A DNA stretch of 64,000 nt from Bacteroidota bacterium. GTDB lineage: Bacteria > Bacteroidota > Ignavibacteria > UBA10030. The notes under the pieces are model-generated. The model was not told the origin of the DNA. It made no database searches and was given only the letters and a program-made list of their open reading frames with translations. Both the position numbers and the translations under genes were made by a program. How positions within the stretch are numbered: position 1 is the stretch's first letter; each line of letters opens with the position of its first letter. The stretch covers positions 263,394 to 327,393 of the forward strand of contig JBEKNC010000003.1 in NCBI GenBank assembly GCA_049523215.1, written 5' to 3'. Below are positions 1 through 16,579 of this stretch, piece by piece.

Positions 1-262
1 TGAGGAATTTACCTCGTATTCTGTCATGTTCTTTTCCTGCACTCGTAAAGTGTTGTGAACCATCTATCTCAACAACCAATTTTTCTTTCCAGCATACAAA
101 ATCAACAATGTATTTCCCTATGGGCGTTTGACGTCTGAAATAATATTCTAGTTGCTTTCCACGAAGCCGTGACCAGAGTTTTTGTTCTCCGTCGGTCATG
201 GATTGACGAAATGCTCGTGCTCTGCCAACAGAGCCATGTCGATATTGCAAAGTTTCTGACAT
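1..262 (-). CDS. DUF559 domain protein (endonuclease-like), partial, runs off the window start
   Basis: The reverse-complement of 1-262 translates to MSETLQYRHGSVGRARAFRQSMTDGEQKLWSRLRGKQLEYYFRRQTPIGKYIVDFVCWKEKLVVEIDGSQHF... This is the typical DUF559 motif set (YxVDF, EIDG.QH). It is absent from the ORF track because it is cut by the window edge. Confidence 0.65.
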   Translation of the reverse strand, partial: MSETLQYRHGSVGRARAFRQSMTDGEQKLWSRLRGKQLEYYFRRQTPIGKYIVDFVCWKEKLVVEIDGSQHFTSAGKEHDRIRGKFL

Positions 263-401
263 TATTTTGAACCTCTCCCTAACCCTCTCCTACAAGGAGA
301 GGGTATATTCGCGCTTGGTTTTCCGATAGTCTATTTCTTTTTATCATCTATTACTCTCCTCCCCTGTAGGGGAGGAAAAAGGTGGGGTTGTCAATCTAAC
401 T

Positions 402-606
402 TCCCCTCCGCAATCTTTATCTCTCATTGTCATCCCCGTATGCTTCTAATGGGGATCCAGGATAAGGTTCTTTCCTCTTGCATTTTAATGTTATCCCTGT
501 TTCTGTTCGGGAGAATATTTATCCACGTCCATCTGTAGCCGATGTCGTTGGTTACATTATTTTTTACAGACCGCTTTATCGAACCCCCAGCCTTCGGCTT
601 CCCCCA
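402..606. repeat. Composite repeat copy 1: module A (402-525) plus module C (528-606)
   Basis: Module A consensus: cccctccacaatctttatctccaattgtcatccccRtatgcttctaatggggatccaggRtaaggttctt...ctgtttctgttcgg, with the internal hairpin atccccat/atggggat. Module C: ctgtagccgatgtcgttggttacattattttttacagaccgctttatcgaacccccagccttcggcttccccc. Both modules recur at 716-975, 1397-1766 and 4789-4930. Confidence 0.8.
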
Positions 607-715
607 ACCCCCCTTTGCTCCCCCCTTCAACGAAGGGGAGCGTATCACAACAATACGCGTAAGCGTATCACTAATAAAACGCAGACCACCTTTTAGCAGG
701 GGGGTTCAGCTTTTT

Positions 716-975
716 TCCTTCCACAATCTTCATCTCCAATTGTCATCCCCATATGCTTCTCATGGGGATCCAGGACAAGGTTTTTATCTTTTCTCTCATT
801 TGACGTTATCACTGTTTCTGTTTGGAAAAACATTTATCCTCGACAAACGCTCGCGGCTGTAATGATTTTTGCTTCTGTAGGGACACAACACGTTGTGTCC
901 TGTTTTTGGGCGCATCGTGATGCGCCCCTACGAGGATTTTCCTTTACCCCTCCGCCGCCGCCTTCTTCATCTCTG
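716..975. repeat. Composite repeat copy 2: module A (716-839) plus module B (840-975)
   Basis: Module B: tcgacaaacgctcgcggctgYaatgatttttgcttctgtagggacacaacacgttgtgtcctgtttttgggcgcatcgtgatgcgcccctacgaggattttcctttaccc.tccgccgcc..cttcttcatctctg. It contains two perfect hairpins (ggacacaac..gttgtgtcc and gggcgcatc..gatgcgccc). It is about 95 percent identical to 1631-1766. Confidence 0.8.
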
Positions 976-1378
976 CAAGTTTCGTGGCAAGATCTGCAGG
1001 CAATGCAACGAGAAGCGTTTTAATGTGTTTTGGGAAACGCCCATTATTTTTTTCTTTCTTAATAAGCTCCATCATTGATTTGTCTGTAAATGCAAACACA
1101 ATTTCCTGCGGTTTTTCACTGAGGGAACCTGCCCAAAAAGCATTCGAGCGGACTTTGGCAAGCTCATCTGCTCCAGGTTTATCGCCTGCCGTCTTACTTG
1201 AGCTCGTTGAGATAAAACAGACAATCTTTCCGTCTTCAGAGACAGCATCGCATTCAAATTCGCCGCCGGATTGCACCCCTAATTTCTGTTTTGAGAAGAC
1301 TTGATGATATTTCTTGGGAAGGAATTCGGTTCTTATCCAATTTTCAACATCTTTTGTTGCTAGCGTTGAGTCTGCCAT
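944..1378 (-). CDS. Hypothetical protein, 144 aa, sandwiched between repeat copies; the C-terminal 11 residues are encoded by repeat module B
   Basis: ORF with a plausible start. No motif could be assigned confidently. The segment GGEFECDAVSEDGKIVCFISTSS weakly resembles a PD-(D/E)xK-like strand pair. The 3' end (944-975) lies inside repeat module B. Confidence 0.35.
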   Translation of the reverse strand: MADSTLATKDVENWIRTEFLPKKYHQVFSKQKLGVQSGGEFECDAVSEDGKIVCFISTSSSKTAGDKPGADELAKVRSNAFWAGSLSEKPQEIVFAFTDKSMMELIKKEKNNGRFPKHIKTLLVALPADLATKLAEMKKAAAEG

Positions 1379-1396
1379 TGAATATTCCTTAGCGCT

Positions 1397-1766
1397 ACCT
1401 GTAGCTGATGTCGTTGGTTACATTATTTTTTACAGATCGCTTTATCGAACCCCCCAGCCTTCGGCTTCCCCCCTTTAAGAAAGGGGGGAGCAAGGGGGGT
1501 TAGGTCTTCCCCTCCACAATCTTTATCTCCAATTGTCATCCCCATATGCTTCTAATGGGGATCCAGGGTAAGGTTCTTACCTCTTGCATTTTATTGTTAT
1601 CTCCGTTTCTGTTCGGAAAAACATTTATCCTCGACAAACGCTCGCGGCTGCAATGATTTTTGCTTCTGTAGGGACACAACACGTTGTGTCCTGTTTTTGG
1701 GCGCATCGTGATGCGCCCCTACGAGGATTTTCCTTTACCCTTCCGCCGCCTTCTTCTTCATCTCTG
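1397..1766. repeat. Composite repeat copy 3: module C (1397-1476), a G-rich hairpin spacer, module A (1507-1630) and module B (1631-1766)
   Basis: Direct sequence match to the copies at 402-606 and 716-975. The spacer cccccctttaagaaagggggg is a perfect hairpin. Confidence 0.8.
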
Positions 1767-1921
1767 TTGTTATCGTTATACCCGCGGTTTTTGTAGAGAC
1801 GTCCCCACGATGTTTTCCCTTTTAACCTGCCGTTTGGCCGCTTCTCCATTTCATTCTTCATCCAGAAAAACCAAAGACCGCGCGCTGAAACACGTGCCCT
1901 TTCTCGGATGAGGTGCAATAT

Positions 1922-2755
1922 CTATTTTGTTGTGGATGAATCAGGGACGGCGTTTTTCACCGTTTCATTTCCTAATGTGCCTTGGCCCAATGTGAACATC
2001 TCGTAGTATGCATTCATCAACTTTGCCATCATCATGGTACCCGCTGAATTAACAAGTGCATCGTGATCCTCCGATGCGGCAAATACGAACAGCAACGTCA
2101 CTTTTCCCTTGAACGATTCCGGCAGTGCTATGTCGGAGCCTTCGAATGTTTTGACGCTGAACGAGGGAAGTGGTTTCCCAAGGTACGCATAAAAATCCTG
2201 CCCCTTGCCGAGCGTGAACAACGCCTTGGGTTTGGCATCCGCTTTTTCTTTTGCCAGGGTCGTTTGGAACGGACTTGTTTCGTCAACGGAGATCGCTTCC
2301 TTGCCATCAAGGTTCAACAGAAGTTCTTCCACTAACCGGTTGAAACGGCGCGGATCAAACATGGTCGATTGGCAATGTGCGCGAATGATTCCTTTCCGGT
2401 CGATGGCCAGTACAGTAAAATTGTTCGAATTAAGTTCCAGCACCGAATCGACGGCGGCAGAAAACGCCCTGCCCGAAGCGCTCTTTCCGCCAAACGATAT
2501 ACCGAACGCGCTTTGCGATTTCAGCTTCTTGTACGTCGAGTCGGCGAGTGTCGGGAACAGGAATGTCACATTCATTTTGTCCTTGAAGATCCCGCCGACA
2601 ACATGTTTGGCTGTGGTGAGGTCTTCTGCCATTCCGATTCCTACGATGTTGAGCTTCGGCAGAGGATTGTTGCTATATCGTTCAACAAGCTGGGCGGTCG
2701 CGATGGAACCACCTGTGATCAGGGCGATGAGCGTGATAACGATGATGCGTTGCAT
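1922..2755 (-). CDS. Secreted hypothetical protein with a degenerate (Cys-less) thioredoxin-like/redoxin-like region
   Basis: N-terminal signal peptide MQRIIVITLIALITGGSIATAQ. The segment GKVTLLFVFAASEDHD resembles the redoxin P-loop region, but the CxxC is replaced. The overlapping plus-strand ORF 2205-2885 is judged spurious. Confidence 0.4.
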   Translation of the reverse strand: MQRIIVITLIALITGGSIATAQLVERYSNNPLPKLNIVGIGMAEDLTTAKHVVGGIFKDKMNVTFLFPTLADSTYKKLKSQSAFGISFGGKSASGRAFSAAVDSVLELNSNNFTVLAIDRKGIIRAHCQSTMFDPRRFNRLVEELLLNLDGKEAISVDETSPFQTTLAKEKADAKPKALFTLGKGQDFYAYLGKPLPSFSVKTFEGSDIALPESFKGKVTLLFVFAASEDHDALVNSAGTMMMAKLMNAYYEMFTLGQGTLGNETVKNAVPDSSTTK

Positions 2756-3238
2756 GATAAGCTCCTTTCAACTGGGAACGGCGGCAGCGGATTGGGCTCC
2801 CCCCTTCAAACGATCCCGCCGTAATGCGTGGCCGACGTTACATCTATTGGTTAAAACTGTTCAATTACAGTTACAACAAAAGTAAACCTGAAATTCGTTA
2901 TATGCAAGAAAGACAGCAATTCGTTCCGTATCCAATTTTCAACATCTTTTGTTGCAATAGTCGAATCTGCCATTTTGTAATCGTTTCCCCAGAAATACTT
3001 CTTCCAACGTCTTTGCAGCCGTTAACTTTTTATAAGTAGATCTTCTCGCTCCCAAGCTCTGCTGGGGAGCGTTATTTAAGGAAGCTCTGCTTCCATAAAT
3101 CTTTACCGTTTTGTCTGTACATTAACCAATCAACGGTCTACCTTCAGGTTCTTCCATTATTTAAAGCAGAGCTTCGCCACCTTCCGTTCCCAAACGGAGT
3201 TTGGGAACGAGGGGAAAGCGGGATGGATCGGTACAAAT

Positions 3239-4147
3239 CTATTTTGTACTTTTCACTACACTCATCGCGGTAGCGATCATCGACGAAATATCGCCAAAGT
3301 TCGCCGGAAGAATTAACGTCGTACCCTGCTTTGCAAGATTACCGAATTGTTCCACCAATTTTTCAGCAACGCGTAATTGCACGGCTTCCATTCCGCCTTC
3401 CGACTTAGCTGCCGCTGCAACTGCTTTTACACCGTCTGCGGTTGCATTTGCGACCGCACGGATTGCTTCAGCTTGACCGCTTGCTTCGTTAATTTGTTTC
3501 TGTCGGACCGCTTCAGATTCAAGAACGACCTTCTGTTTCTGCCCTTCGGCAACGTTGATCGCGGACTGTTTTTCTCCTTCTGACTGCAAAATGATCGCCC
3601 GTTTTTCGCGTTCCGCCTGCATCTGTTTTTCCATCGCAATGAGTACAGTCTTCGGAGGGACGATGTTCTTAATTTCGTACCTCAGGATCTTTACGCCCCA
3701 TGTGCGTGATGCCTCATTGATTGCGCTTACGATCGCTGAATTGATCATTGTCCGTTCTTCAAACGTTTTATCCAGGTCGATCTTTCCAACTTCACTGCGC
3801 ATCGTGGTCTGCGACAGCTGCACGATGGAAAACATGTAATTGCTAATGCCATACGACGCCATCTGCGGATCAAACACCTGCACGAAAATCACACCGTCAA
3901 CCCCGACTTGAACGTTGTCCCTGGTGATACAGACCTGCTCAGGAATATCGATCGTCTGTTCTTTCAACGTATGTCTATAGGCGATTTTATCGATGAATGG
4001 AATAATGTAGCTCACTCCCGCATGCAGAGCGATGTGAAATTTACCAAGCCGCTCAACAACATATGCGCTTTGCTGTGGAACAACACGAACGCCGGTCATA
4101 ATTATGATGGCTGCAAGTACGGCGAGGACAATAAAAAATATTTCCAT
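3239..4147 (-). CDS. SPFH/band-7 (stomatin/QmcA-like) membrane protein
   Basis: N-terminal TM helix followed by a typical SPFH core (VVPQQSAYVVERLGKF...) and a C-terminal coiled-coil region rich in A/E/K/Q. Confidence 0.85.
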   Translation of the reverse strand: MEIFFIVLAVLAAIIIMTGVRVVPQQSAYVVERLGKFHIALHAGVSYIIPFIDKIAYRHTLKEQTIDIPEQVCITRDNVQVGVDGVIFVQVFDPQMASYGISNYMFSIVQLSQTTMRSEVGKIDLDKTFEERTMINSAIVSAINEASRTWGVKILRYEIKNIVPPKTVLIAMEKQMQAEREKRAIILQSEGEKQSAINVAEGQKQKVVLESEAVRQKQINEASGQAEAIRAVANATADGVKAVAAAAKSEGGMEAVQLRVAEKLVEQFGNLAKQGTTLILPANFGDISSMIATAMSVVKSTK

Positions 4148-4171
4148 AACAACTCCCTTCTTTTAAGTAGT

Positions 4172-4615
4172 TTATTCGATGAATTTGACTTTCGCCCGAA
4201 TTCCGTCTAATGAAACAATTTCGACTGTGCTCCCTTCGCGTATCGAATTGGTAGATTCACTGAAAGCAATCCATTCCGATCCTCGATAAGAAATCGCGCC
4301 TTCACCGCCGGCTGGAATCGCTTTTACTACCTTAACCCTTTGGCCTTTATAGTCCGGCGGTACATCATGACTGCCAAAGAATAATTTTTTCGCTGTTTTC
4401 CTGAGCACAAACAACAAGAGTAAAGAAGTAATAGAAAAAACTGCAAGCTGGCCGCTTAGTCCAGGCGTGATACCGGCCCAAGTGGTAATTGAGACAATCA
4501 GCGCACCTATTCCAAAGAATGTGAATACGAACGCAAAATGCGTGAGTTCGAGGATGATGAGGACAATTCCTATAATTGCCCAGACAATCACCGGGGACAT
4601 AAATGCTTCAAACAT
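4172..4615 (-). CDS. NfeD-family membrane protein (short form), partner of the stomatin-like protein
   Basis: Three N-terminal TM helices plus a C-terminal OB-fold-like beta domain (GQRVKVVKAIPAGGEGAISYRGSEWIAFSE). It is immediately upstream of, and co-oriented with, the SPFH gene, which is the canonical nfeD-SPFH operon. Confidence 0.7.
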   Translation of the reverse strand: MFEAFMSPVIVWAIIGIVLIILELTHFAFVFTFFGIGALIVSITTWAGITPGLSGQLAVFSITSLLLLFVLRKTAKKLFFGSHDVPPDYKGQRVKVVKAIPAGGEGAISYRGSEWIAFSESTNSIREGSTVEIVSLDGIRAKVKFIE

Positions 4616-4788
4616 GCTGTTAGTTCCTTTCCCTGTTTAGAATGCTTCCGTGTAGAACGTTATCGACGTAAAAAATACGACATTTTAATATCCAACTTGA
4701 CTGAATATAGACTAGTTTTTTAGGAATGGCAAATAGAGGTGGTTGGAATACTCATCGGTACACTCTGGCTTTCTCTAGTCACCATCTA

Positions 4789-4930
4789 CTCCTCCACAAT
4801 CTTTATCTCCAATTGTCATCCCCGTATGCTTCTAACGGGGATCCAGGATAAGGTTCTTATCTCTTGCATTTTAATGTTGACACTGTTTCTGTTCGGGAGA
4901 ACATTTACCGCATACATCTGTAGCCGATTT
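4789..4930. repeat. Composite repeat copy 4: module A plus truncated module C, immediately 3' of the EVE-domain gene
   Basis: ctcctccacaatctttatctccaattgtcatccccgtatgcttctaacggggatccaggataaggttctt...catctgtagccgat matches modules A and C. Confidence 0.8.
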
Positions 4931-4953
4931 GATTCTTTCTGAAAACTTCTTCA

Positions 4954-6063
4954 TCACATCGTCTCCGCCTCTTCGGTGTACTCATCTAGAACTGTGTCTT
5001 TCATGTATTCCAGATGACCTTGCTTGTGTAATTCGATTAACGAATCATAAGAAAGGAAAGTGCATGATTCTACAAGTGGACCCTTTTCCAGCAAGCTGAA
5101 AACAGGTCTGGTAATTTCTTGAAATACTTTTTCTCTTCTTTCTGCTGGTGCTACAATGTGAGCTTTAATGTCAAGGTTAGGTTGTAAGGCAAGTAGATCC
5201 GCCATTCTGAGTATTCCAGAATATATCGATGTCGTATGTTCGACTTCAAAAGCTCTCACGATTGAAGTACGTCGTATCCAAAGCACGTCGATCTGTTCAA
5301 TCGTGCGTAAAGTTGTGTCATCATAATTCATAGGGAGCGACTCTAGCAATGACCCCCCTTGCGGTTTCCATATGTCTAAGACTCGAGACCTATCACTGCG
5401 TGGAACCCATATCTTCATCCCCATTTTTTCGCCAATCTCTGCGAGTAAGGCCTGAATTTGAATGGACTGACGATGTTCTGCAATATCCAGTTTTTGTTCT
5501 TCTATCTCCTCTTCTGGAATTGAAACTGATATTTGCTTATTTAGTGGCGTGCGAATACTATGACCCTGGATCTTCTTTATATCCTCTTCAGAAAGTTCAT
5601 AATTAATGCTATTATGGGTCTGTTCTTTCAATACTCTTTCAAGAAACTCTCCATCATCGTTGTCTAGCTTAAACAGGCTACCTCTCACTCTATTGGTCCA
5701 ACTCTTGTCGTGTTTTGAAAGAGATTTTGTAAAAGAAAGTGTATTCCATACAAGGTCCTCATGGATAGGTACCGCCTTATTTAAATCAAGCCACACATCT
5801 GTTTGAACTTTGAATCTTACTGTGAATGGATCATCTTCAGGAATAAATATTGGTGTATTATCATTAAAACATTTGCTGGTTACTTCAAGAATTCCAACCC
5901 ATCTAGATATTTTTGTTACATAACAGAGAAATTTATCTCCTGGTTTTATCTTATCAGCGGTATTGCGCTGCCTCGGACGGAATCCAGAAATGTCTCTATT
6001 GGATTTGCCAAATGTCTGATATGTCTCTGGTGAAAAAAGATCAATGTAATATGCCATCAACAA
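4954..6063 (-). CDS. EVE (PUA-like) domain protein with a C-terminal uncharacterised, possibly nuclease, domain; candidate modified-DNA reader/restriction component
   Basis: The N-terminal roughly 130 aa (AYYIDLFSPETYQTF...IKPGDKFLCYVTKISRWVGILEVTS) fit the EVE/PUA-like pattern: aromatic residues, GD, Y.....W.G...V. The C-terminal roughly 160 aa (QIDVLWIRRTSIVRAFEVEHTT...) show D/E strand motifs reminiscent of a restriction-endonuclease-like fold. The gene lies directly downstream of the Type IIG gene on the same strand, with a 33-bp gap. Confidence 0.55.
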   Translation of the reverse strand: MLMAYYIDLFSPETYQTFGKSNRDISGFRPRQRNTADKIKPGDKFLCYVTKISRWVGILEVTSKCFNDNTPIFIPEDDPFTVRFKVQTDVWLDLNKAVPIHEDLVWNTLSFTKSLSKHDKSWTNRVRGSLFKLDNDDGEFLERVLKEQTHNSINYELSEEDIKKIQGHSIRTPLNKQISVSIPEEEIEEQKLDIAEHRQSIQIQALLAEIGEKMGMKIWVPRSDRSRVLDIWKPQGGSLLESLPMNYDDTTLRTIEQIDVLWIRRTSIVRAFEVEHTTSIYSGILRMADLLALQPNLDIKAHIVAPAERREKVFQEITRPVFSLLEKGPLVESCTFLSYDSLIELHKQGHLEYMKDTVLDEYTEEAETM

Positions 6064-6096
6064 GCCTCTTTGGTTTCACTAATCCTGGAACAGTTA

Positions 6097-9000
6097 TTAA
6101 GAATTCTTATTTTCTACTTTCCCCTCCACAATCTTTATCTCTTCCTCCGTCAACTCGTACAATTTATACACGATATCATCTATCTTTTTATCTGTGGCGG
6201 CGATTTGACGCTCGACGGGCTCTTTCTCACTGTCAAAATGGGATTTCTGCAATTGCTTGTTGAGTTCCAACATTTTCTCCACGAGCGACACGAGGTCATC
6301 GTGCATTTTCTTTTCGATGGGATTATTAAAATCGATGGCGCGGATAGGAAGTCTTTTAGCATTTTGAATTAATATTTTCTGAAAAACTTCTTTTGATTGA
6401 TCCAAATACTTATGCTTATGGTAAAAATTTATCAATTTGGAATTCAGAATTCCAAGAATATATTTAAGGCTACATTCAGCATCGTTTTTTAACAAAAGAT
6501 TGAAGGCTATTTGAGCATTATATAGCTCCTCCTCGGTGTAGCCGGCATAAATTCTGAGAGGCGAGCCACTTACAATTTGTCTCACTAATATTCGTGGTTC
6601 AGAAAAAAACCTCTGCTCTCTTGGTGCACCTAACCAATCACCGTAACTAATCCATTCTTTCCTACCCCAATCAACTAAGTAACGACTTATATCTTCACCG
6701 GAAAGAATTTTCTTAAAGGTTTTGTCCTTCTTTTTTGTTGAATGAAAGACTCTCTTTTCAATTTGTGCTTGTGTATGTCCTTTGTATTTGTCATATGGCG
6801 TCAAGCCAAGAGAAAAACCACAAACCGCTTCAAGATCGCGACCTATTTTTGACATTTTGTCTATTAAATGCAAAGCATCTGCATTAGAGAAAATATTGAA
6901 AGTACTATAGTCCTCGTTGCTCCAACTCTTTTGATTTATAAAACTATGTTTAAGTGCCTTATCGAAATCTATATGTCCGAGTCTTTCTGTCCGGTCAAAA
7001 ATAATTATTTCACATTTATCGTCATTTAGTACTTTTCTAATGGCAATCGTCAAAACAATAGTTTCCGCAACGACATTCTCAAAAACGCCATCGGGCAACC
7101 TTACAATTTGTTCAACCGCTGCATCTGTTAAGATTTTCTTCCTAAGTTTTGAATATGTGCTTTGAGTTAATATTGAATTAGGTATAATATAACCGAACCT
7201 GCCCTTGTTTTTTATTATACTAAGTGCTCTCTCAATAAATACCGCATACACATTCATCCTGTTTTCGGTTGTTTTGTACTTTTTAAAATAGTAATCAACC
7301 AAAGAAGGATCCAACCCTTTAATATCGATCCATGGCGGATTCCCAATTACCACATCGAAGCCGCCAGTCTTCATAATCTCAGAAAACTCTATTTCCCAGT
7401 CGAATGGGTTTACTTTGTGCCTCGCTTCTTCATCGAACATTTCTCCCTGTGAAGTAAAATCCGTGCCGATAAGTGAATTGCCGCATTTAATATTCTTCGC
7501 GAGCGACGGCAGGTACACTTCTTTTAATGCAAGCGTCATTTGCGGGTTCAGCGTTTCGGCATTTTCTCCTTCAAGCACTTTGAGATACAGCGACATCTGC
7601 GTTACTTCCACCGCCTGCCGATCAATATCCACACCGTAAATATTGTTTACTAAAATATCCCGCTTCTTGCGCGGGGAGAGATGGTAATTGCCGTCTGCGT
7701 CTTTGTAAGAATCAGGGACATTGTTTTCTGTTTTAATATCTTCAGGGTGCGCGGTGTACCATTCAATGTGGTAATCGATCAGTGTCTGGAATGCGCCGAG
7801 CAGGAACGATCCGCTTCCGCAAGCGATGTCGATGATCTTTAATTTTGAAACTTGTTTTGGTGAGAGCCTAAGTCGTTTGATTTCTGTAGCCGACGTCGCT
7901 GACGTCGGTTCTTCCTTTTTCCCGCGATCATCGATCGCGGCTACAATTTTTTCCTCATACAACAATTTACCCAGCGTATTATCCACAATATACTTGACGA
8001 TGTACTGCGGCGTGTAATACACTCCGCCTGCCTTCCGCACTTCCGGCTTTTCTTTTATTATTACATTTTTTGGCGCAAGATGAATTGTCTTGCCGAGGAA
8101 TTTTTCATAAATGCTGCCGAGTATCTCCACGCCGATCTCATTGAAGTGATATGGCGAGAACGGATAATTCAAGTTCTCTAAAATCTTAATCAACACTTCA
8201 TCGCCAACTTCCAACTCTTCGCATTGATGCTGACTAAAGAGCAGCCCATTATACAATGCGCGCCGCTGTTTGAATAAATCATTCAACAGCGAATACAACG
8301 ACAGACCGCGGCGTTCTTTCCACATCCGCAAGATGGCAAGCAGTGTATTTTCAACTTCTATTTCCCTGTCTTCGCACACGCGAATGAAGACGATGCGGTC
8401 AAGAATGCGCTGGACCGCTTCGTTGAGCGTATAATCATTCAGGAACCGACGGTTCTTCGGATGTTTTGCAATATCTCGCGCCAACTCTTCGCGCCATTTA
8501 GATAAATCTTCCAAAAATTCACGGTCGAGTGCAAAGTCGCCGGTGCGCTTCAACATCATCTTTTTTGTCAGCGCTTCCAGGGAACCACCTGCGACAGCAT
8601 CGCGCGAGAATGTATCGAAGAGACGTTCGAATTGATCTAAGTAATGCTTATACGTCAGATCGAAATCTTTGATGATGCCTAATTTCGGTTTCTCAAACGC
8701 AGGTCGCTGGGTGCAATCGAATGTGCGGAATTCTTCAAAGTCTGTAAGTATCGCAAGCGGCACGCGCCCGGAAAATCCGTACCGTTTTACCTGAAAGATC
8801 GCCGATTGGCTTTTTACAAGATCGACGTAGGGCTTTTTTGCTTCAACAAAGAATTTTGTTTGCCCGCCAATGCGAAATCGGTAATCCGGTTTTTTAACTG
8901 CCTCTTTAGAATTGGCTTTGTATTCATCCTCGGCAATATAATCCAGAATGGAAGCGTACTCTTTATACTCTTTGCCAAGAGTTTCTTTTTTCGGAAAGAG

Positions 9001-9252
9001 CGGTTCTTGTTCCTTTACTTCTCTGGCAGTACTGCTCTTCATTCTCGATTCCGGTACGACCTCTTGACGGAATAGCGGTTGCATCAAACGATTATGCACA
9101 TCCCAACCAAGTGCTTCAAAAAACGGATCGATGAGCTGCTGGCGCGCCTGAGTCTCGTTAAACGATGATGATTTGAATTGATAGATGTTCTGATCAAAGA
9201 AATTGACAAGTTTTTCTATATTTTTTCGCGCTGATATTCTATCATTAGCCAT
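6097..9252 (-). CDS. Type IIG/IIL restriction-modification enzyme (MmeI-like): N-terminal PD-ExK nuclease, N6-adenine gamma-class methyltransferase and C-terminal target-recognition domain
   Basis: N-terminal ETQARQQLIDPFFEALGWDV, PDYRF...FFVEAKK (PD..ExK) and LAILTDFEEFRTFD align with the MmeI N-terminal nuclease. MTase motif I IIDIACGSGSFLLGAF and motif IV VVIGNPPWIDIKG are present. The length is 1051 aa. A low-complexity insertion (IVAAIDDRGKKEEPTSATSATEIKR) is encoded by a repeat element. Confidence 0.8.
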   Translation of the reverse strand: MANDRISARKNIEKLVNFFDQNIYQFKSSSFNETQARQQLIDPFFEALGWDVHNRLMQPLFRQEVVPESRMKSSTAREVKEQEPLFPKKETLGKEYKEYASILDYIAEDEYKANSKEAVKKPDYRFRIGGQTKFFVEAKKPYVDLVKSQSAIFQVKRYGFSGRVPLAILTDFEEFRTFDCTQRPAFEKPKLGIIKDFDLTYKHYLDQFERLFDTFSRDAVAGGSLEALTKKMMLKRTGDFALDREFLEDLSKWREELARDIAKHPKNRRFLNDYTLNEAVQRILDRIVFIRVCEDREIEVENTLLAILRMWKERRGLSLYSLLNDLFKQRRALYNGLLFSQHQCEELEVGDEVLIKILENLNYPFSPYHFNEIGVEILGSIYEKFLGKTIHLAPKNVIIKEKPEVRKAGGVYYTPQYIVKYIVDNTLGKLLYEEKIVAAIDDRGKKEEPTSATSATEIKRLRLSPKQVSKLKIIDIACGSGSFLLGAFQTLIDYHIEWYTAHPEDIKTENNVPDSYKDADGNYHLSPRKKRDILVNNIYGVDIDRQAVEVTQMSLYLKVLEGENAETLNPQMTLALKEVYLPSLAKNIKCGNSLIGTDFTSQGEMFDEEARHKVNPFDWEIEFSEIMKTGGFDVVIGNPPWIDIKGLDPSLVDYYFKKYKTTENRMNVYAVFIERALSIIKNKGRFGYIIPNSILTQSTYSKLRKKILTDAAVEQIVRLPDGVFENVVAETIVLTIAIRKVLNDDKCEIIIFDRTERLGHIDFDKALKHSFINQKSWSNEDYSTFNIFSNADALHLIDKMSKIGRDLEAVCGFSLGLTPYDKYKGHTQAQIEKRVFHSTKKKDKTFKKILSGEDISRYLVDWGRKEWISYGDWLGAPREQRFFSEPRILVRQIVSGSPLRIYAGYTEEELYNAQIAFNLLLKNDAECSLKYILGILNSKLINFYHKHKYLDQSKEVFQKILIQNAKRLPIRAIDFNNPIEKKMHDDLVSLVEKMLELNKQLQKSHFDSEKEPVERQIAATDKKIDDIVYKLYELTEEEIKIVEGKVENKNS
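6121..6142. repeat. Fragment of repeat module A (cccctccacaatctttatctc) overlapping the last codons of the Type IIG gene
   Basis: 22-nt identity to the 5' end of module A. It encodes ...EIKIVEG of the MTase C-terminus. Confidence 0.5.
7884..7946. repeat. 63-bp double-hairpin element (GACGTC-type hairpin plus ccgcgatcatcgatcgcgg hairpin) inserted in frame inside the Type IIG coding region; second copy at 52326-52386
   Basis: tagccgacgtcgctgacgtcggttcttcctttttcccgcgatcatcgatcgcggctacaa compared with the 52326 copy gctgacgtcattgacgtcggcattttcttccccgcgaccatcggtcgcggctacaa. Both have the same two-hairpin architecture and the shared tail cgcggctacaa. Confidence 0.75.
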
Positions 9253-9421
9253 TATCTGAGCCTTAAAAATCTCATCAGGTAATTCAATGGTTCAATGCCA
9301 TCGGTGAGCCGCATATCCCCTAATAGCATCTGCTAAGAATGTAGACAAACCTTCTATCTTGTTCAACTTTCATTTCCATTTCATTGCTGGAACAGTTTCA
9401 TATATTCCTTAAAAAATAAAT

Positions 9422-10675
9422 CTACACCCACAATGCTTGGATCGGAACGGCATAAAGATTCTTCTCAAACGGAATGACTTCATTTCCATCATATAATACG
9501 ATGCCGCGCAGAAACTTCTTTTTCATTTCAGCTTCCAGCATCTTCATCGTTTTAAATGACGATGCGTCGACCTTTTGCCCGCTTTTGACTTCAATACAAA
9601 CTATACTGCCATCACGGCGTTCAAGCAGAAAATCAATTTCCTGTCCGGTATGTGTCCGAAAATGATGTATCTGCGTCTGTGTTTTACACCATGAGATCAG
9701 TTTCAGCAATTCATTGAGAACAAATGACTCAACGGCTTTTCCCATAATCTCTCCGTCAGACCGAAGCCGCTGGTCATCTGCACCGAGAAGATACAGCATC
9801 AATCCGGTATCTGTCAGGTACAGCTTCGGTGTCTTAATCAGACGTTTGCTCAGATTCTTAGACCACGGCGTTACCAATCGCACAAGGAACGTTGTTTCAA
9901 GCAGGGTCATGTATCTTTTTAAGGTCGTCTGCGGAATAGTACTGCTATTGGACAACTCTGCAAAATTCAACAAAGAACCTGAACGGCTGGCAAGAAGGGC
10001 AAGCAGCCGAGGAAGCGCCGTTAATCCTTCGATGTGCATGAGATCCCGTATATCACGCTGCAAGATGGTTGTTACATACGAACTGAACCAGGAATTCCTG
10101 CGAGCCGGATCATTGCGCTGCAATGCTTCAAAATATCCGCCTTTTATCATCCGATCACTCAATAGATGACGCGTGATATTTTTGACGGAGTATTTGGGCA
10201 TTTTCTCTGCAAAGATATCCTCTACAAATGATCCCTTTGTTTCTTCGAGTTCACTTTGTGAAAATGGGTACAGGGAAAGTATCTCCATTCGCCCTGCAAG
10301 CGACTCAGAAAGTTTCGGTATGAGAAGGACATTTGCCGAACCCGTTAAAAGAAATTGGCCTGCCCTCTTTTTTTTATCTACGGAGGCTTTCAATGCAAGA
10401 AATATTTCCGGCGCCCTTTGGACTTCATCGATAATGAGCGGCTCTTGATAACCGGCTAAAAATCCTTCCGGATTATTATGCACAGCGGAGAGAACCACCG
10501 CATCGTCCAATGTGACATATCGAGCAGTATGCCCATGCGATGATAGCCACTCCACCAATGTGCTTTTTCCTACCTGCCGGGCTCCATTGAGCAAGACAAC
10601 AGGGCTATCCTTGAGAGCATCAAGTACATTCGGTGTAATAGTACGCTGTCCAATATTTAGCTGATAATCATCCAT
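9422..10675 (-). CDS. AAA+ ATPase of the DUF4143-containing (COG1373-like) family
   Basis: Walker A LLNGARQVGKST and Walker B LIIDEVQ. The C-terminal region has the conserved pattern of the DUF4143 archaeal-type ATPases (...HHFRTHTGQEIDFLLER...CIEVKSG). Confidence 0.8.
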   Translation of the reverse strand: MDDYQLNIGQRTITPNVLDALKDSPVVLLNGARQVGKSTLVEWLSSHGHTARYVTLDDAVVLSAVHNNPEGFLAGYQEPLIIDEVQRAPEIFLALKASVDKKKRAGQFLLTGSANVLLIPKLSESLAGRMEILSLYPFSQSELEETKGSFVEDIFAEKMPKYSVKNITRHLLSDRMIKGGYFEALQRNDPARRNSWFSSYVTTILQRDIRDLMHIEGLTALPRLLALLASRSGSLLNFAELSNSSTIPQTTLKRYMTLLETTFLVRLVTPWSKNLSKRLIKTPKLYLTDTGLMLYLLGADDQRLRSDGEIMGKAVESFVLNELLKLISWCKTQTQIHHFRTHTGQEIDFLLERRDGSIVCIEVKSGQKVDASSFKTMKMLEAEMKKKFLRGIVLYDGNEVIPFEKNLYAVPIQALWV

Positions 10676-10854
10676 AATGTGGACGATTTTACATTCACGC
10701 CGGTTTATACAGATTATGGAGCAACTTGAAATAGCGGAAGGCCCTATTTTAACTTATTCTACCAACTTAAAATAAGCATTTTCTTATTTATCCCGGGCAC
10801 GACAGTGTCGTGCCCCTACAAAAGAACCTCCGGAGGTTGATGGGAACACAATTT

Positions 10855-11075
10855 ATCTTTCTCTCTTTCTTTTACACTCGCCAGCGAAATCGATAGAAGA
10901 TGTTCATCAAATTAATTGTATCCGCGACTCCACCACCCCTTCGAAATAATGTCTGCGTATTTTGGAACACGCAAAGCGTGATGCTTTCCTACGCTCCTCC
11001 TCAAATGAGGAGGGGACAAGCGTAGTGCAAGGGTGGTGGTTTTATGCTTCAAAGAAAGTGGCGATAAGTTTATAT
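10855..11075. repeat. Intergenic repeat modules X (10855-10905), a GC-rich long hairpin (10929-11039) and Y (11046-11073) upstream of the S46 peptidase gene; X and Y recur downstream at 13548-13615 and 13804-13832
   Basis: X: ttctctctttcttttacactcgccagcgaaatcgatagaag compared with 13561 ttcttctctttttcttttcctaagcctgcgaaatcgacggaag. Y: tcaaagaaagtggcgataagtttat compared with 13806 tcaaagaaagtggcgataaatttat. Hairpin: ccaccacccc...ctcctcctcaaatgaggagggg...gggtggtgg. Confidence 0.7.
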
Positions 11076-11248
11076 TATTTGAAATAAATCAAGATTCCCG
11101 CCTGCCCTCCTTCCGCCCAAAAAACTGGCGGACAAGACGGTGGGTAAGCAGGCAGAAAACGCAGAAATGGATGGGTCTCTTTTTTCAAAAAAGTTTCGTT
11201 ATATTATCCCGTCTTCAATAACTCTAATTTCATTTTTGGAGGATTCCT

Positions 11249-13342
11249 ATGAAAACCAAGACCCGTTGGATTAAGTATATTCTGACGTTTGGTGTTGTTC
11301 TTTTTGTATTTCATAGTACAATTTTTTCAGCACCCGATGAAGGAATGTGGACATTTGATAATCCACCGTTGAAGCTGCTCAACGATCGTTATAACTTCAT
11401 CCCAACACAGGAATGGCTTGACCATGTGCGGCTTTCGAGTGTCCGTTTTAACAATGGAGGATCGGGATCATTCGTTAGTCCTACTGGATTGGTACTAACG
11501 AACCACCATGTTGCCCTTGATCAATTACAGAAAGTATCAACATCCCAGAAAGATTATGTCCAAGATGGCTTCTATGCCGCCACACCTGCTGAAGAGATGA
11601 AGTGCCCCGATCTTGAACTTAACGTCCTGATGTCGCTTGAAAATGTTACCGACAGGGTTTTCAGTGTAATAAAAAAGGGAATGAGCGATCAGGAAATCTA
11701 TGCCGCACGAAAAGCTGAAATAGCAAAGATCGAAAAAGAAAGCCTCGAAAAAACAACGCTTCGGTCTGATGTCGTGCCGCTCTATGATGGAGGTGAATAC
11801 TGGCTGTATCGGTACAAGAAGTATACTGAGGTCCGTCTTGTATTTGCCCCTGAAGTGCAGATTGCATTCTACGGCGGTGATCCGGATAATTTCACTTTCC
11901 CGCGTTACGATCTCGACATGGCAATTTTCAGGGTATATGAAGACGGCAAACCTGTCGTGAGCACTCAGTACCTGAAGTGGAACTCAAAAGGCGCCGCCGA
12001 TGGTGATTTGGTATTTGTATCTGGAAATCCGGGCTACACAGCTCGTTTGAACACAATGGCTGAAATTGAAAAAGATCGCGATTATACGTACCCGCTGATA
12101 CTCAAAATATTAAAGCGCCGCCTTGAGGTATTGAAACGCTATGCGGCACTTGGACCTGAGCAGGCAAGGCAGGCGAGCAACATGATTTTCTACTATGAGA
12201 ATTCGGTCAAGGCTCTTACGGGAGAGTATAACGGTCTCCTGGATAAAAATCTTATAGCAAAAAAACAAAAAGAGGAAACTGATTTTCAAACACGCGTCAA
12301 CAGCAAGCCTGAATGGAAATCGGAATTCGGCGGCGTGTGGAACACGATCGCAGAGATCCAGAAAAAGCATAGCGAAAACATGACTAAGATCCGGTACCGT
12401 GCGATTCGCGGTTCACAATTTGCCCAGCTTGCACTGGATATCGTTCGATATGTGACGGAAATACAGAAACCGGATGGAAAACGTCTTGAGGGATTTCACG
12501 ATTCGCAACTCGAATCACTCCGATACGATCTTCTCTCACCTGCACCAATTTATCTGCAGCTTGAAGAAACTATGTTTGCTGATGCGTTGCGGGAATCATT
12601 GGAACAACTGGGTCCCGACGACCCCTTCGTAAAAACAATTCTTGGAACCCGAACACCCGAAGAGGCTGCAAAAGATCTTTTCACCGGTACGAAACTCGCC
12701 GATCCGAAGGTCCGGAAAGCGCTTATTGAGGGCGGAGAAAAAGTCGTCGATGAATCAACCGATCCTTTAATTGCAATGGCACAGAAGGTTGATCCGATTC
12801 TGCGTGAACTTCGAAAATGGATCGAGGACCATCTTGATAGTCAGATGAAAATTGCAGGGGAAAAACTCGGGAAAGCCCGCTTTGCAATCTATGGAAAATC
12901 TGTCAACCCTGATGCTACCTTCACGCTTCGGCTTTCGTACGGCGCTGTCAAAGGATATCCGATGAACGGCACGATAGCACCGTCAAAAACGACATTCTAC
13001 GGATTATATGATCGTGCATCGAGTTTCGATATGAAACAGCCGTTCAATCTTCCCGCACGATATCTTGAGCGGAAAGAGAAGCTCGATCTCTCGACCCCGC
13101 TGAATTTTGTCTGCTCATGCGATATCATCGGCGGCAACTCCGGATCTCCGGTTATCAACAGAGATGGCGAGCTTGTCGGATTGATTTTCGATGGAAATAT
13201 TGAGAGCCTTGTCGGCAATTTTATTTACAGCGATGAGACAAACCGTGCCGTTGCAGTCCATTCGGCTGCAATGATCGAAGCTTTACGGAAACTCTACGAT
13301 GCCGGAAAGCTTGCAGACGAACTGGAGGGAAAATCGAAGTAG
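11249..13342 (+). CDS. S46 family dipeptidyl-peptidase (DPP7/DPP11-like serine peptidase), secreted
   Basis: Signal peptide, then the motif DEGMWTFDNPP typical of the S46 N-terminus. The catalytic Ser motif GGNSGSPV lies near the C-terminus and the His region is TNHHV. The length is 697 aa. A good RBS (ggagg) sits before the ATG. Confidence 0.85.
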   Translation: MKTKTRWIKYILTFGVVLFVFHSTIFSAPDEGMWTFDNPPLKLLNDRYNFIPTQEWLDHVRLSSVRFNNGGSGSFVSPTGLVLTNHHVALDQLQKVSTSQKDYVQDGFYAATPAEEMKCPDLELNVLMSLENVTDRVFSVIKKGMSDQEIYAARKAEIAKIEKESLEKTTLRSDVVPLYDGGEYWLYRYKKYTEVRLVFAPEVQIAFYGGDPDNFTFPRYDLDMAIFRVYEDGKPVVSTQYLKWNSKGAADGDLVFVSGNPGYTARLNTMAEIEKDRDYTYPLILKILKRRLEVLKRYAALGPEQARQASNMIFYYENSVKALTGEYNGLLDKNLIAKKQKEETDFQTRVNSKPEWKSEFGGVWNTIAEIQKKHSENMTKIRYRAIRGSQFAQLALDIVRYVTEIQKPDGKRLEGFHDSQLESLRYDLLSPAPIYLQLEETMFADALRESLEQLGPDDPFVKTILGTRTPEEAAKDLFTGTKLADPKVRKALIEGGEKVVDESTDPLIAMAQKVDPILRELRKWIEDHLDSQMKIAGEKLGKARFAIYGKSVNPDATFTLRLSYGAVKGYPMNGTIAPSKTTFYGLYDRASSFDMKQPFNLPARYLERKEKLDLSTPLNFVCSCDIIGGNSGSPVINRDGELVGLIFDGNIESLVGNFIYSDETNRAVAVHSAAMIEALRKLYDAGKLADELEGKSK

Positions 13343-13489: not shown

Positions 13490-13897
13490 TAATTTAATTA
13501 AGATACCCGTTTGCACGGGTATGATAGGTAAAACGCGGGAATGGCATTTCCTTCTTTTCCTTTTCTTCTCTTTTTCTTTTCCTAAGCCTGCGAAATCGAC
13601 GGAAGTGAACACGGCCAAGAGGAGGCATTGCTTATTCCATCTTCGATCCAAATCCTAAACGTGAAGCGCATCGAGTCCGTAATAGTCATTCCTCCTTGAG
13701 AATATATTTTCGATTTCGTCCGACTGCCGATCGGCAGTCGAGATCTCGTCTCGACATCGTCAAGACGGACATGTGTTTCTTTCTGCCACTTTCTTTGCAC
13801 ATTCAAAGAAAGTGGCGATAAATTTATGGATCGAATTAGTGGGTAATTTATTTAAGGTGCCCGCGTGCGCGTATGACTGGCAAAACGTGAGGGAAGA
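13490..13897. repeat. Structured intergenic region: two related roughly 57-nt elements (13490-13547 and 13843-13897), a 50-nt CT-rich tract, perfect palindromes (cgactgccgatcggcagtcg; gccactttctttg..caaagaaagtggc) and modules X'/Y'
   Basis: gtgagtaatttaattaagatacccgtttgcacgggtatgataggtaaaacgcgggaa compared with gtgggtaatttatttaaggtgcccgcgtgcgcgtatgactggcaaaacgtgagggaa, about 75 percent identical and in the same orientation. Confidence 0.6.
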
Positions 13898-14519: not shown

Positions 14520-15624
14520 TCACGCTGCAGCGGATTTCTCTTCCACTTTGAGAATTTCGTACAGCGTTGTACGTTGCGCCGGAATAAATCCTGATTCCCG
14601 AATCATATTCCTGCACTCTTCAGCATCGGTTGTATTGATGAAATTAGCAGCCGCATGCACATTCTCTTCAAGCAACGTGCCGCCAAAATCATCGGCGCCA
14701 AAGTGCAAAGCAATCTGGCCGATCTTCTTCCCTTCTGAGAACCACGACGCCTGGATATGTTCAAAATTGTCCAAATAAACGCGTGAGAAGGCGATCATTT
14801 GCAGATACCGTGTAAGATGTAGCATAATGCGGAATAATCTTCTCTAAAGGCGTGTTACCGGGCTTAAATGACCACGGAATGAAGGCAGTGAACCCGCCGG
14901 TCTCATCCTGCAGCTGGCGGATGGCCTCGAGATGCTCAACAATATCCTCATCTGTTTCGAGGTGCCCGTACATCATAGTTGCCGTTGTTTTGTAGCCAAT
15001 CTGCTGGGCAATGCGCATGACATTCAGCCAATCGGCAAAAGTGCCTTTTTTACTGCTGATCTTCCTCCTCACACGGTCAGAGAGAATTTCGGCGCCTCCG
15101 CCGGGAATAGACCGCAATCCTTTTTCCCACAATTTCTCCAGCACCCCCCGAATCGATAAACCGGAGATTTGCGACATCCCAATAATTTCCGATGTGGAAA
15201 AGAAATGCGGATAGATCTCCGGGACTTCCTTCACGGTACGTTCGACAAGTTCGAGATAATATTCAAATGGAATCGTCGGGTCAACTCCGCCCTGGAGAAG
15301 CACTGTCGTGATACCTTTCGACGCCGCTTCCTTAAATTTCTGAATCAGTTGGTCGCTCGACAGCCGGTACGCGCCTTCTTCGCCCGGATGCCGGTAGAAT
15401 GCGCAGAAGATACAATCGATGTTGCAGACATTTGAATAATTCGGATTGGTATCGAGCAAATAAGTTACCCATTGTTTCGGATTTTTTTGGAATCGGATTT
15501 CATTTGCCATGTCGCCGAGATCCAATAACTCCGCATTCCTCAACAGAAAGAATCCTTCTTCCCGCGAGATACGAACACCTTCCCGAACCTTCTGATAAAT
15601 TTCTTCCAATGTCATACCATACAT
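14520..15624 (-). pseudogene. Radical SAM menaquinone-biosynthesis enzyme (futalosine pathway, MqnC/MqnE-like) interrupted by a frameshift near 14805-14845
   Basis: The CNIDCIFCAF CxxxCxxC cluster lies in the 287-aa ORF (14761-15624). The C-terminal part (AFSRVYLDNFEHIQASWF...GADDFGGT, typical MqnC/E C-terminus) lies in a different frame (14520-14843). The two frames overlap, consistent with a single-base indel. Confidence 0.6.
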
Positions 15625-15773
15625 CCTACAAATTTATTTGATAACCCGATTGGTGTCAGGAATTTCTTCCTGACACTTTTCTATGTCATCCTCGTTCGCT
15701 TTTTCTGTCAGGATGTAAATCCTGACAGCACATCTAATGAAACGCATCCTACAAATTTATTTGATAACCCGAT
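15622..15773. mobile_element. MITE-like insertion (about 94 bp, two hairpins, ends tgtcagga/tcctgaca) flanked by a perfect 29-bp direct duplication (15622-15650 and 15745-15773)
   Basis: DR catcctacaaatttatttgataacccgat appears twice. The internal sequence is tggtgtcaggaatttcttcctgacac...ctgtcaggatgtaaatcctgacag. One DR copy carries the stop codon of gene 15749-16579, the other carries the start codon of gene 14761-15624. Confidence 0.6.
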
Positions 15774-16579
15774 GCTTTAAGATCTTTCAATAATCCGAAG
15801 CTCGCTTCTTCCAACTTGATCACGATCGATTTCGTCAACACGCCCGGCACGTTTTTTGGAAAGTCAACATCTGACATATGAAGAACACAAACACGATTTT
15901 TGCCAAGCTTTCCGACGAAATGCCCAAGCTCGAACATTGCATACGCAAGATCGTTCGGGTTGATGATAAAGAAGGCAAACCTTACGCCCGCATCAACCTG
16001 AAGCGTCTCAAGCGGAAGCATCTGTCCGTGTTGACGTTCGATATCAATTTCCTCTATTCCAATTTCTCCGAGAAATTGCAGCAACTGCACACGGAGCGGA
16101 TCATCTGCTTCCCCGACAACATACACTTTACTGGCATGCGCAGCAGCCTGCGGATGTGCAGAAGGTTGAGCGGGTGCCGTCGCTGCAGGTTTCGGAGGCG
16201 GTTTCAATATTCGGACTCCTCCGGTGTCTGTTGCAGTCTGAACTGTCGGCGTCTGAAGATCCATTGCCGGAGCAGCCGGAGCCGATGCGAGTTCTGGAGA
16301 AGCCTTCACTTTTTCGTACAGTTCACGCAAACAGTTGAGAATCAACTGGGCGGATGGCTGAAAAAAGAATCCGCCTTTTTTATCCCCAAGAATTTTTTGT
16401 TTGTACGGAAATCCAATTGGTCCGGATGATTCGAGCGTTTCCAAACATGCTTTGCGCCAATCCAGATATTTATTTTGTAATCGTGCATTATACCCGGAGG
16501 CCTCGAATCCTCCTTGCGGCGCTAATTGAGTTCCGCTGGCTATTAACTCTTCATATTTTTTTAGTAATTGTTCTGGCAT
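15749..16579 (-). CDS. Hypothetical protein with a C-terminal TIR-like nucleotide-binding domain (COG4271/SLOG-type), a Pro/Ala-rich linker and an N-terminal helical domain
   Basis: The C-terminal region KVYVVGEADDP...FAFFIINPNDLAYAMFELGHFVGKLGKNRVCVL matches the conserved strand-turn pattern of predicted TIR-like nucleotide-binding proteins (fElGyFiGklG..rv). The assignment is from recalled family consensus and not verified by search. Confidence 0.45.
   Translation of the reverse strand: MPEQLLKKYEELIASGTQLAPQGGFEASGYNARLQNKYLDWRKACLETLESSGPIGFPYKQKILGDKKGGFFFQPSAQLILNCLRELYEKVKASPELASAPAAPAMDLQTPTVQTATDTGGVRILKPPPKPAATAPAQPSAHPQAAAHASKVYVVGEADDPLRVQLLQFLGEIGIEEIDIERQHGQMLPLETLQVDAGVRFAFFIINPNDLAYAMFELGHFVGKLGKNRVCVLHMSDVDFPKNVPGVLTKSIVIKLEEASFGLLKDLKASGYQINL

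Follow-up and report, generated by a model that had tools for sequence, protein, structure and literature searches.

A probable small defence island in a Bacteroidota genome, with a DUF4143 ATPase, a Type IIG restriction-modification enzyme and a predicted EVE-NmeDI_C reader-nuclease

In a 64,000-nucleotide (nt) stretch of DNA from a Bacteroidota bacterium (contig JBEKNC010000003.1, positions 263,394 to 327,393), which is referred to below as the window, three large co-oriented open reading frames (ORFs) lie on the minus strand at 9422-10675 (417 aa), 6097-9252 (1051 aa) and 4954-6063 (369 aa when read from a TTG codon). They encode, respectively, an ATPase, a Type IIG restriction-modification (RM) enzyme and a fusion of an EVE domain with a nuclease domain of the NmeDI_C family, the last of which is the principal subject of this article. 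A preliminary description, made from the sequence alone, had placed three co-oriented genes at these coordinates and had recognized the DUF4143 ATPase, a single-chain RM enzyme with a gamma-class methyltransferase and an N-terminal EVE domain, all of which are upheld by the analysis presented here. The genes and their domains are as follows.

9422-10675, minus strand: ATPase with AAA_14 and DUF4143 domains, ORF of 417 aa (Pfam AAA_14 1.9e-26, DUF4143 3.1e-47)
6097-9252, minus strand: intact single-chain Type IIG RM enzyme, 1051 aa (Pfam, PADLOC and motifs)
8701-9162, minus strand: HSDR_N-type PD-ExK nuclease domain of the IIG enzyme (Pfam HSDR_N 6.6e-10)
6970-7881, minus strand: gamma-class N6-adenine methyltransferase domain of the IIG enzyme (Pfam Eco57I 1.2e-42, N6_Mtase 4e-22)
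6343-6711, minus strand: TaqI_C target-recognition domain of the IIG enzyme (Pfam TaqI_C 7.2e-19)
5563-6057, minus strand: EVE (PUA-superfamily) domain, residues 1-165, predicted reader of a flipped modified base (Pfam, AlphaFold)
5482-5562, minus strand: acidic interdomain linker, residues 166-192, of low confidence (pLDDT <50; alignment variable and gapped)
4954-5481, minus strand: NmeDI_C domain with the PD-(D/E)xK restriction-endonuclease fold, residues 193-367 and the stop codon (D257, E271-V-E273)

The boundaries of the third gene can be refined by comparison with its homologues, every one of which begins with MAYY or MAYF, so the start codon is probably the ATG at 6057. The EVE-fusion gene most likely occupies 4954-6057 and encodes 367 aa, and the 369 aa and 33-nt gap of the preliminary description are corrected to 367 aa and a gap of 39 nt after the stop codon of the IIG gene. 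No terminator-like site was detected in this gap, and the EVE-fusion gene is therefore probably co-transcribed with the IIG gene at this locus. The ATPase gene, located 169 nt upstream of the IIG gene, probably forms a separate transcription unit. The GC content dips to 0.36-0.39 across 5000-7500, compared with approximately 0.45 in the surroundings.

The N-terminal domain of the fusion protein matches the Pfam model EVE (PF01878) over residues 24-141 with 26 bits, above the cut-off of 23 (E=1.1e-5), and the archaeal proteins PH1033 and MJECL36 are retrieved both by phmmer and by the family profile, the latter matching PH1033 with E=2.5e-6. A structure predicted by AlphaFold from the single sequence was unusable (pLDDT 34), and prediction with an alignment of 119 sequences gave a mean pLDDT of 84.7, with two well-predicted domains, residues 1-165 and 193-367, separated by a disordered acidic linker that holds a conserved 'V-S-[VI]-P-E-[DE]' strand. 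The predicted EVE domain displays a pseudobarrel fold that is superposable on solved EVE/YTH domains, and a viral fold library gave matches of the EVE/ASCH type only. Residues S9, T12, F26, Y46, F82, W104, W120, T121 and R125 are invariant within the domain, a set that appears compatible with a pocket for a flipped modified base.

The C-terminal half was suspected in the preliminary description to be a nuclease, without a match to any nuclease family; the suspicion was right, and the family can now be named as NmeDI_C. The Pfam family PF27126 (NmeDI_C) is the precomputed annotation of an identical protein, P0001, the model not having been returned by the Pfam scan of the window protein itself, and the PADLOC model REase_II (PDLC03534), whose 351 positions correspond to the length of R.NmeDI, matches residues 190-326 with E=6.3e-16. 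In the AlphaFold model, the C-terminal domain (residues 193-367), for which a structure search had been proposed, contains a restriction-endonuclease-like alpha/beta core of the PD-(D/E)xK type. D257, which precedes the strand 258-262, and E271-V-E273, at the end of the strand 265-272, are invariant in all of the aligned sequences (119/119). The characterized enzyme R.NmeDI cleaves the DNA on both sides of RCCGGY at a distance of 12/7 nt (PMC2095814), and the NmeDI_C domain is therefore plausibly a cut-at-distance cleavage module.

The EVE-NmeDI_C family is large and highly conserved, with more than 5,792 proteins matching at E<=0.001. The best 120 matches are approximately 365-375 aa long and 59-65% identical to the window protein, with the exception of the identical P0001 and of P0002, which is 82% identical. 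A collection of 185,579 species genomes (one per species) contains 468 confirmed matches, spanning Bacteroidota, Acidobacteriota, Nitrospirota, Chloroflexota, Gemmatimonadota, Planctomycetota, Pseudomonadota, Bacillota, Cyanobacteria and one Hadesarchaeon. The GC content of the family genes lies on average 5 points below that of their flanks, and 20-25 points below in some loci; together with the spread over many phyla, this resembles a signature of horizontal transfer. No homologue of the EVE-NmeDI_C protein was found in phage genomes, and the relatives found on plasmids share the C-terminal domain only, at 33-43% identity. Among these are genes of approximately 420 aa on Caulobacter and Sphingomonas plasmids (L088, 3269-4534; L089, 3230-4513), which carry NmeDI_C, are annotated as 'type II restriction endonuclease' and stand solitary inside copper/heavy-metal resistance clusters of conjugative plasmids, with no methyltransferase listed beside them. 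NmeDI_C-type matches also occur in the plasmid records of Cupriavidus metallidurans CH34 (233.7 kb).

Considered on its own, the C-terminal domain falls into 1,684 clusters when grouped at 50% identity. Of the 150 best representatives, 51 have an EVE-like N-terminus recognized by phmmer, and in a further 42 the N-terminal region exceeds 100 aa and shows no detectable similarity to EVE. In P0123, NmeDI_C is preceded by an Mrr_N winged helix (E=2e-30); P0121, whose C-terminal domain is 73% identical to that of the window, carries the N-terminal sequence 'YDIFISYRHND', which is TIR-like by eye; and other relatives, including P0125 and P0151, have N-terminal domains of 250-300 aa without family assignment. 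In relatives with other N-terminal domains, the NmeDI_C module is accompanied by an acidic linker and by a conserved 'V-x-V-[ST]-V-P-[ED]-D' strand. Since EVE, Mrr_N and other N-termini are found before the same C-terminal domain, NmeDI_C can, as judged from these sequences, be regarded as a promiscuous effector that is joined to interchangeable N-terminal domains. Interchangeable N-terminal readers are a pattern described for modification-dependent endonucleases (PMC6765204, PMC11037411, PMC12191111).

The upstream neighbour of the EVE-fusion gene encodes an intact Type IIG enzyme, which matches the PADLOC model REase_MTase_IIG (PDLC03604) with E=6.7e-183 and combines nuclease, methyltransferase and target-recognition domains in one chain. 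Its motifs are all intact, including P122-D123...E137-A-K139, DIACGSGSF at residue 475 and NPPW at residue 638, and homologues with the same domain set number in the thousands. The designation "MmeI-type" used in the preliminary description fits the general architecture, which is shared with the IIG/IIL enzymes of the MmeI family (single chain, N-terminal PD-ExK nuclease, gamma-class adenine methyltransferase, C-terminal target-recognition domain), but not the family. The enzyme differs from the MmeI family in its HSDR_N N-terminus and TaqI_C target-recognition domain, and the match to MmeI_Mtase is weak (49 bits against 146 bits for Eco57I in Pfam). No Pfam MmeI model other than MmeI_Mtase matches it at E<=0.01, and membership of the MmeI family proper was rejected, the MmeI-specific N-terminal, helical, target-recognition and C-terminal domains being without a match.

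The recurrence of the IIG-EVE pairing was examined from both sides. On the EVE side, the best 80 of the 468 matches (57-64% identical) were kept, ORFs were called within ±10 kb in these 80 other loci, and the 676 neighbouring ORFs were clustered all-against-all. No cluster of neighbours of the EVE-NmeDI_C gene is present in more than five loci, and a conserved partner gene was accordingly rejected. Gamma-class adenine methyltransferases, which were searched for with an iterated profile of the methyltransferase domain, occur within 10 kb in 11 of the loci and are absent from the other 69, and a C5-methyltransferase lies near the gene in two (L034, L082). A IIG enzyme is encoded upstream in only one (L008), and it belongs to another IIG family, with the domain order DUF7149-DUF7814-Eco57I-TaqI_C. 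The co-resident methyltransferases were also considered as a guide to the ligand of the EVE domain and gave no answer, with m6A enzymes (11 loci) and C5 enzymes (2 loci) both nearby. A link to MADS was considered and set aside: the PADLOC models mad2, mad3 and mad8 match 4-7 of 122 neighbours, and the neighbours scanned individually are methyltransferases of the Type I or Eco57I-like kind, along with further subunits of RM systems. An integron cassette was rejected, no attC-like sites having been found downstream of the gene in 74 loci in comparison with controls.

On the side of the IIG enzyme, four of the nearest homologues listed, all of them on long contigs (87, 66, 66 and 65% identity; 5 contigs), are accompanied by neither an EVE gene nor a DUF4143 ATPase. 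In one locus (L085, 1-9291), which encodes a 66%-identical IIG enzyme and is syntenic with the window down to the same Peptidase_S46 neighbour, the slot after the IIG gene is filled by a RhuM-Fic gene that overlaps the end of the IIG gene by 8 nt. Because these IIG homologues lack an EVE gene and no neighbour is conserved on the EVE side, the slot after the IIG gene is a variable cargo position and the pairing a local arrangement. The preliminary description had proposed that the EVE fusion and the IIG enzyme form an operon architecture that could couple a reader to an m6A writer and might co-occur in other genomes; neither part of this proposal is borne out by the loci compared here. Its other suggestion, a type IV-like backup, has become the best-supported reading, since the gene has no fixed partner and the large majority of its loci contain no gamma-class methyltransferase.

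The locus is thus interpreted, with moderate confidence, as a small defence island of this Bacteroidota bacterium that comprises three independent modules, namely the DUF4143 ATPase, the Type IIG RM enzyme and the EVE-NmeDI_C nuclease, and the EVE-NmeDI_C protein within it is probably a modular endonuclease of a Type IV-like kind that depends on DNA modification and stands alone. The present analysis establishes the two folds, the invariance of the three acidic residues, how large and how well conserved the family is, the absence of a fixed partner and the swapping of N-terminal domains. In the mechanism that is envisaged, the IIG enzyme would mark the host DNA with m6A at its own site and cut unmethylated foreign DNA, as is established Type IIG behaviour. 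The EVE domain would flip a modified base out of the invading DNA into a predicted conserved pocket, by analogy with VcaM4I (PMC7897488). The target base would, at low confidence, most likely be a phage-type modified pyrimidine, 5hmC or a derivative, rather than host m6A or 5mC; the occurrence of both m6A and C5 methyltransferases among the neighbours, together with a near-invariant reader across differing methylomes, tilts slightly towards a phage-type modification. The NmeDI-type PD-(D/E)xK domain, probably as a dimer, would then cut some distance away, as NmeDI does. The protection given by the two enzymes would be complementary, with unmodified DNA cut by the IIG enzyme and DNA that evades it through modification cut by the EVE nuclease; they would not form a dedicated two-protein machine.

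Several observations weigh against this interpretation. The presumed catalytic motif is D...ExE, in which the third residue is glutamate and not the canonical lysine of D...ExK; a BamHI-like variant with glutamate as the third motif residue is known. In the window copy, position 197, within helix 1 of the nuclease core, is glutamine (nt 5467-5469), in contrast to glutamate or aspartate in 117 of 119 relatives, and this substitution could matter for catalysis. For PH1033, the closest structural relative of the EVE domain, no ligand is known, and YTH m6A readers reach almost the same score. For a gene engaged in an arms race, an identity of 58-64% between phyla is unusually high, the majority of the neighbours in other genomes are not recognizable defence genes, and no experimental work on the EVE-NmeDI_C family was found in the searchable literature. 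Furthermore, an adenine methyltransferase is directly adjacent to the EVE gene on the same strand in seven of the 80 loci (L006, L007, L008, L013, L046, L061, L071), with gaps of -28 to +760 nt, compared with approximately one of the 11 methyltransferases expected that close if they were placed at random within ±10 kb (hand calculation). This adjacency therefore exceeds chance, and there may be some functional link between the EVE gene and adenine methyltransferases. The partners are a Type I hsdR-hsdS-hsdM set in L071, hsdR-x-hsdM in L046, the IIG enzyme of the different family in L008 and Eco57I-like methyltransferases in L006, L007, L013 and L061, a heterogeneity of RM types that fits hitch-hiking in defence islands or RM operons better than a dedicated partnership.

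Some of these observations can be arranged into explanations that compete with a stand-alone Type IV-like enzyme. The protein might have no role in defence, acting instead as a conserved DNA-repair or nucleic-acid-processing nuclease, or as an RNA-directed nuclease, whose EVE domain finds a damaged or modified base and whose adjacency to RM genes is incidental. The high identity between phyla, together with the dozens of residues that never vary in either domain, would be consistent with such a role, as would the closest EVE relatives, the archaeal UPF0310 proteins PH1033 and MJECL36, which possibly have an RNA-related function, the predominance of housekeeping or unassigned neighbours elsewhere, and the plasmid NmeDI_C genes that reside in metal-resistance islands with no methyltransferase listed. 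This explanation is nevertheless unlikely, considering that the distribution is patchy (approximately 0.25% of the species genomes, if each match represents a separate species), that the GC content of the gene lies below that of its flanks, that the protein is homologous to a proven restriction endonuclease, that the C-terminal domain recombines with other readers such as Mrr_N, as in defence enzymes, and that RM methyltransferases are enriched among the adjacent genes. A doubtful reading, ranked behind it, retains the defence role and makes the protein an m6A reader-nuclease that works with m6A-based RM and cuts DNA whose adenine methylation is excessively dense or occurs in an inappropriate context, such as the genomes of phages that evade Type I or IIG enzymes through promiscuous self-methylation; it would account for docking at the ends of unrelated adenine-methyltransferase operons, for the YTH-like fold and for the extreme conservation.

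A closer bond between the two genes, in which the EVE domain reads the m6A laid down by the neighbouring IIG enzyme or another adenine methyltransferase and the protein serves as an extra or alternative restriction subunit or as a methylation sensor, could call upon the shared strand and terminator-free 39-nt gap at the present locus, the seven other loci with a directly adjacent adenine methyltransferase, and the fact that every partner checked is an m6A enzyme. It is improbable, ranking below both of the preceding explanations, because no gamma-class methyltransferase is found within 10 kb in 69 of the 80 loci, an EVE gene is missing beside four of the nearest IIG homologues listed, and a nuclease triggered by host m6A would attack the host chromosome; moreover, the partner methyltransferases come from unrelated RM types (Type I, two IIG families, Eco57I-like) with necessarily differing specificities, whereas the EVE domain is almost invariant. 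The least probable explanation is that the window copy has been inactivated by E197Q and is a decaying passenger carried behind the IIG gene. Glutamine at this position occurs in only 2 of the 119 aligned sequences, and additionally in P0002, which lies outside the alignment. Against decay, the ORF is not truncated, none of the other invariant residues has changed, and the catalytic role of residue 197 is presumed; the retention of Q197 in P0002, a relative only 82% identical, argues for continued selection.

A catalogue of EVE proteins includes fusions with PD(D/E)XK nucleases, which it regards as putative type IV enzymes, and also mentions stand-alone members at Type I RM loci (Bell, Wolf and Koonin 2020, PMC7641849). 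The window protein shares the two-domain logic and the predicted role of the catalogued class; the catalogue contains neither the NmeDI_C family name, nor an experiment, nor a IIG neighbour ('Type IIG' and 'Eco57I' being absent from its text), and in the searchable literature names for EVE fusions such as 'EVE-PD' or 'EVE-nuclease' appear in no other paper. VcaM4I, an EVE-HNH protein, is a proven 5mC/5hmC-dependent enzyme (PMC7897488). In comparison with it and other EVE-HNH enzymes (PMC7897488, PMC6765204), the nuclease of the window protein is of the PD-(D/E)xK NmeDI_C type and not HNH, and its EVE domain is closer to PH1033/UPF0310 than to that of VcaM4I. R.NmeDI, a Type II enzyme of Neisseria meningitidis (PMC2095814), possesses a homologous C-terminal domain (Pfam NmeDI_C; PADLOC E=6e-16), and its remote cutting on either side of the site is in keeping with a separable cleavage module. 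It differs in that it recognizes unmodified RCCGGY, that its gene overlaps the cognate M.NmeDI gene, and that its N-terminal half did not align with the EVE domain, the match being limited to model positions 168-311. The TIV-RE of an enterococcal plasmid (PMC11322646) was considered as a relative and rejected, as it is GmrSD-like and not NmeDI_C.

Type IV enzymes encoded next to a methylation-based system are likewise known, an example being BREX with BrxU on pEFER (PMC8565348). The locus would resemble that pair in placing an attacker of unmodified DNA beside an attacker of modified DNA, with complementary cover. The hsd-mcr-mrr region of E. coli is a further example of a methylation-based system beside Type IV enzymes. 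In contrast to BREX and BrxU, the components in the window are a Type IIG enzyme and an EVE-NmeDI_C protein, and their complementarity is inferred.

The remaining module, the 417-aa ATPase, carries the Walker A motif GARQVGKST at residue 31 and matches the PADLOC model PDLC04790 of PDC-S01 over its full length (E=7.9e-160), PDC-S01 being listed in PADLOC as a candidate defence system only. No homologue of the ATPase was found near any other EVE-NmeDI_C gene in the 80 loci or near the four IIG homologues, and these neighbourhoods thus provided no link between the PDC-S01 ATPase and the IIG or EVE gene. Repeats in and around the three genes are as follows.

4786-4930, no strand: hairpin-containing repeat of approximately 150 nt, copy directly after the EVE gene (repeat search; blastn 84-90% identity)
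400-544, 714-836 and 1506-1650, no strand: other copies of the hairpin repeat (repeat search; blastn 84-90% identity)
6123-6141, no strand: 19-nt exact direct repeat of 4791-4809, inside the 3' coding end of the IIG gene (...EIKIVEG)
11048-11073 and 13802-13827: 26-nt repeat, 25/26 identical, flanking the Peptidase_S46 gene on both sides

The core pattern of the hairpin repeat has four matches, against none expected, and all four copies lie downstream of the EVE gene within 5 kb, with none on the ATPase side. The three genes had been described as bounded by repeat elements, which holds on the EVE side and fails on the ATPase side, where only the unrelated 26-nt repeat is present. No Rfam family was found in positions 1-12000 of the window, and the hairpin repeat folds no better than shuffled sequences (z=-1.05). 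Two repeat pairs, 805-975/1596-1766 and 533-588/1399-1454, each 96% identical, are interleaved with the hairpin repeats and indicate a recent local duplication in the first 1.8 kb of the window. The 19-nt copy at 4791-4809 sits at the end of a hairpin repeat and is identical to 6123-6141, so 19-bp direct repeats enclose the EVE gene together with one hairpin copy. Members of the IIG family have a conserved C-terminal sequence, '...EEEIKIVEGK', and the copy at 6123-6141 is thus native to the IIG gene. A site-specific insertion signature was rejected, as bracketing by direct repeats occurs only at this locus among 71 loci and is not family-wide.

Approximately 5 kb beyond the ATPase gene, a minus-strand gene at 15749-16579 encodes a 276-aa protein with a TIR domain of the CAP12/Pycsar type (Pfam, 34 bits against a cut-off of 24.7), beside a radical-SAM gene at 14761-15624, and this TIR gene may be a further defence gene of the neighbourhood. 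Comparison of the window at approximately 10654-11290 with L001 (European Nucleotide Archive contig k141_226828) reveals a coordinate drift of 40 nt between the ATPase and S46 peptidase genes, which points to a 40-nt indel between the two assemblies in this intergenic region.

The locus reveals no new RM architecture, and both the EVE-PD(D/E)XK class and the defence pairing are already known. If the interpretation favoured here is true, it represents one more example of layered defence, in which the restriction of unmodified DNA is combined with that of modified DNA. The enzymes MspJI and AbaSI became tools for mapping DNA modifications, and since the nuclease module of the EVE-NmeDI_C proteins derives from a fixed-distance cutter, a characterized member could become such a tool as well. 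More broadly, the locus points to a very large and highly conserved family of small predicted reader-nucleases, which constitutes a reasonable target for characterization.

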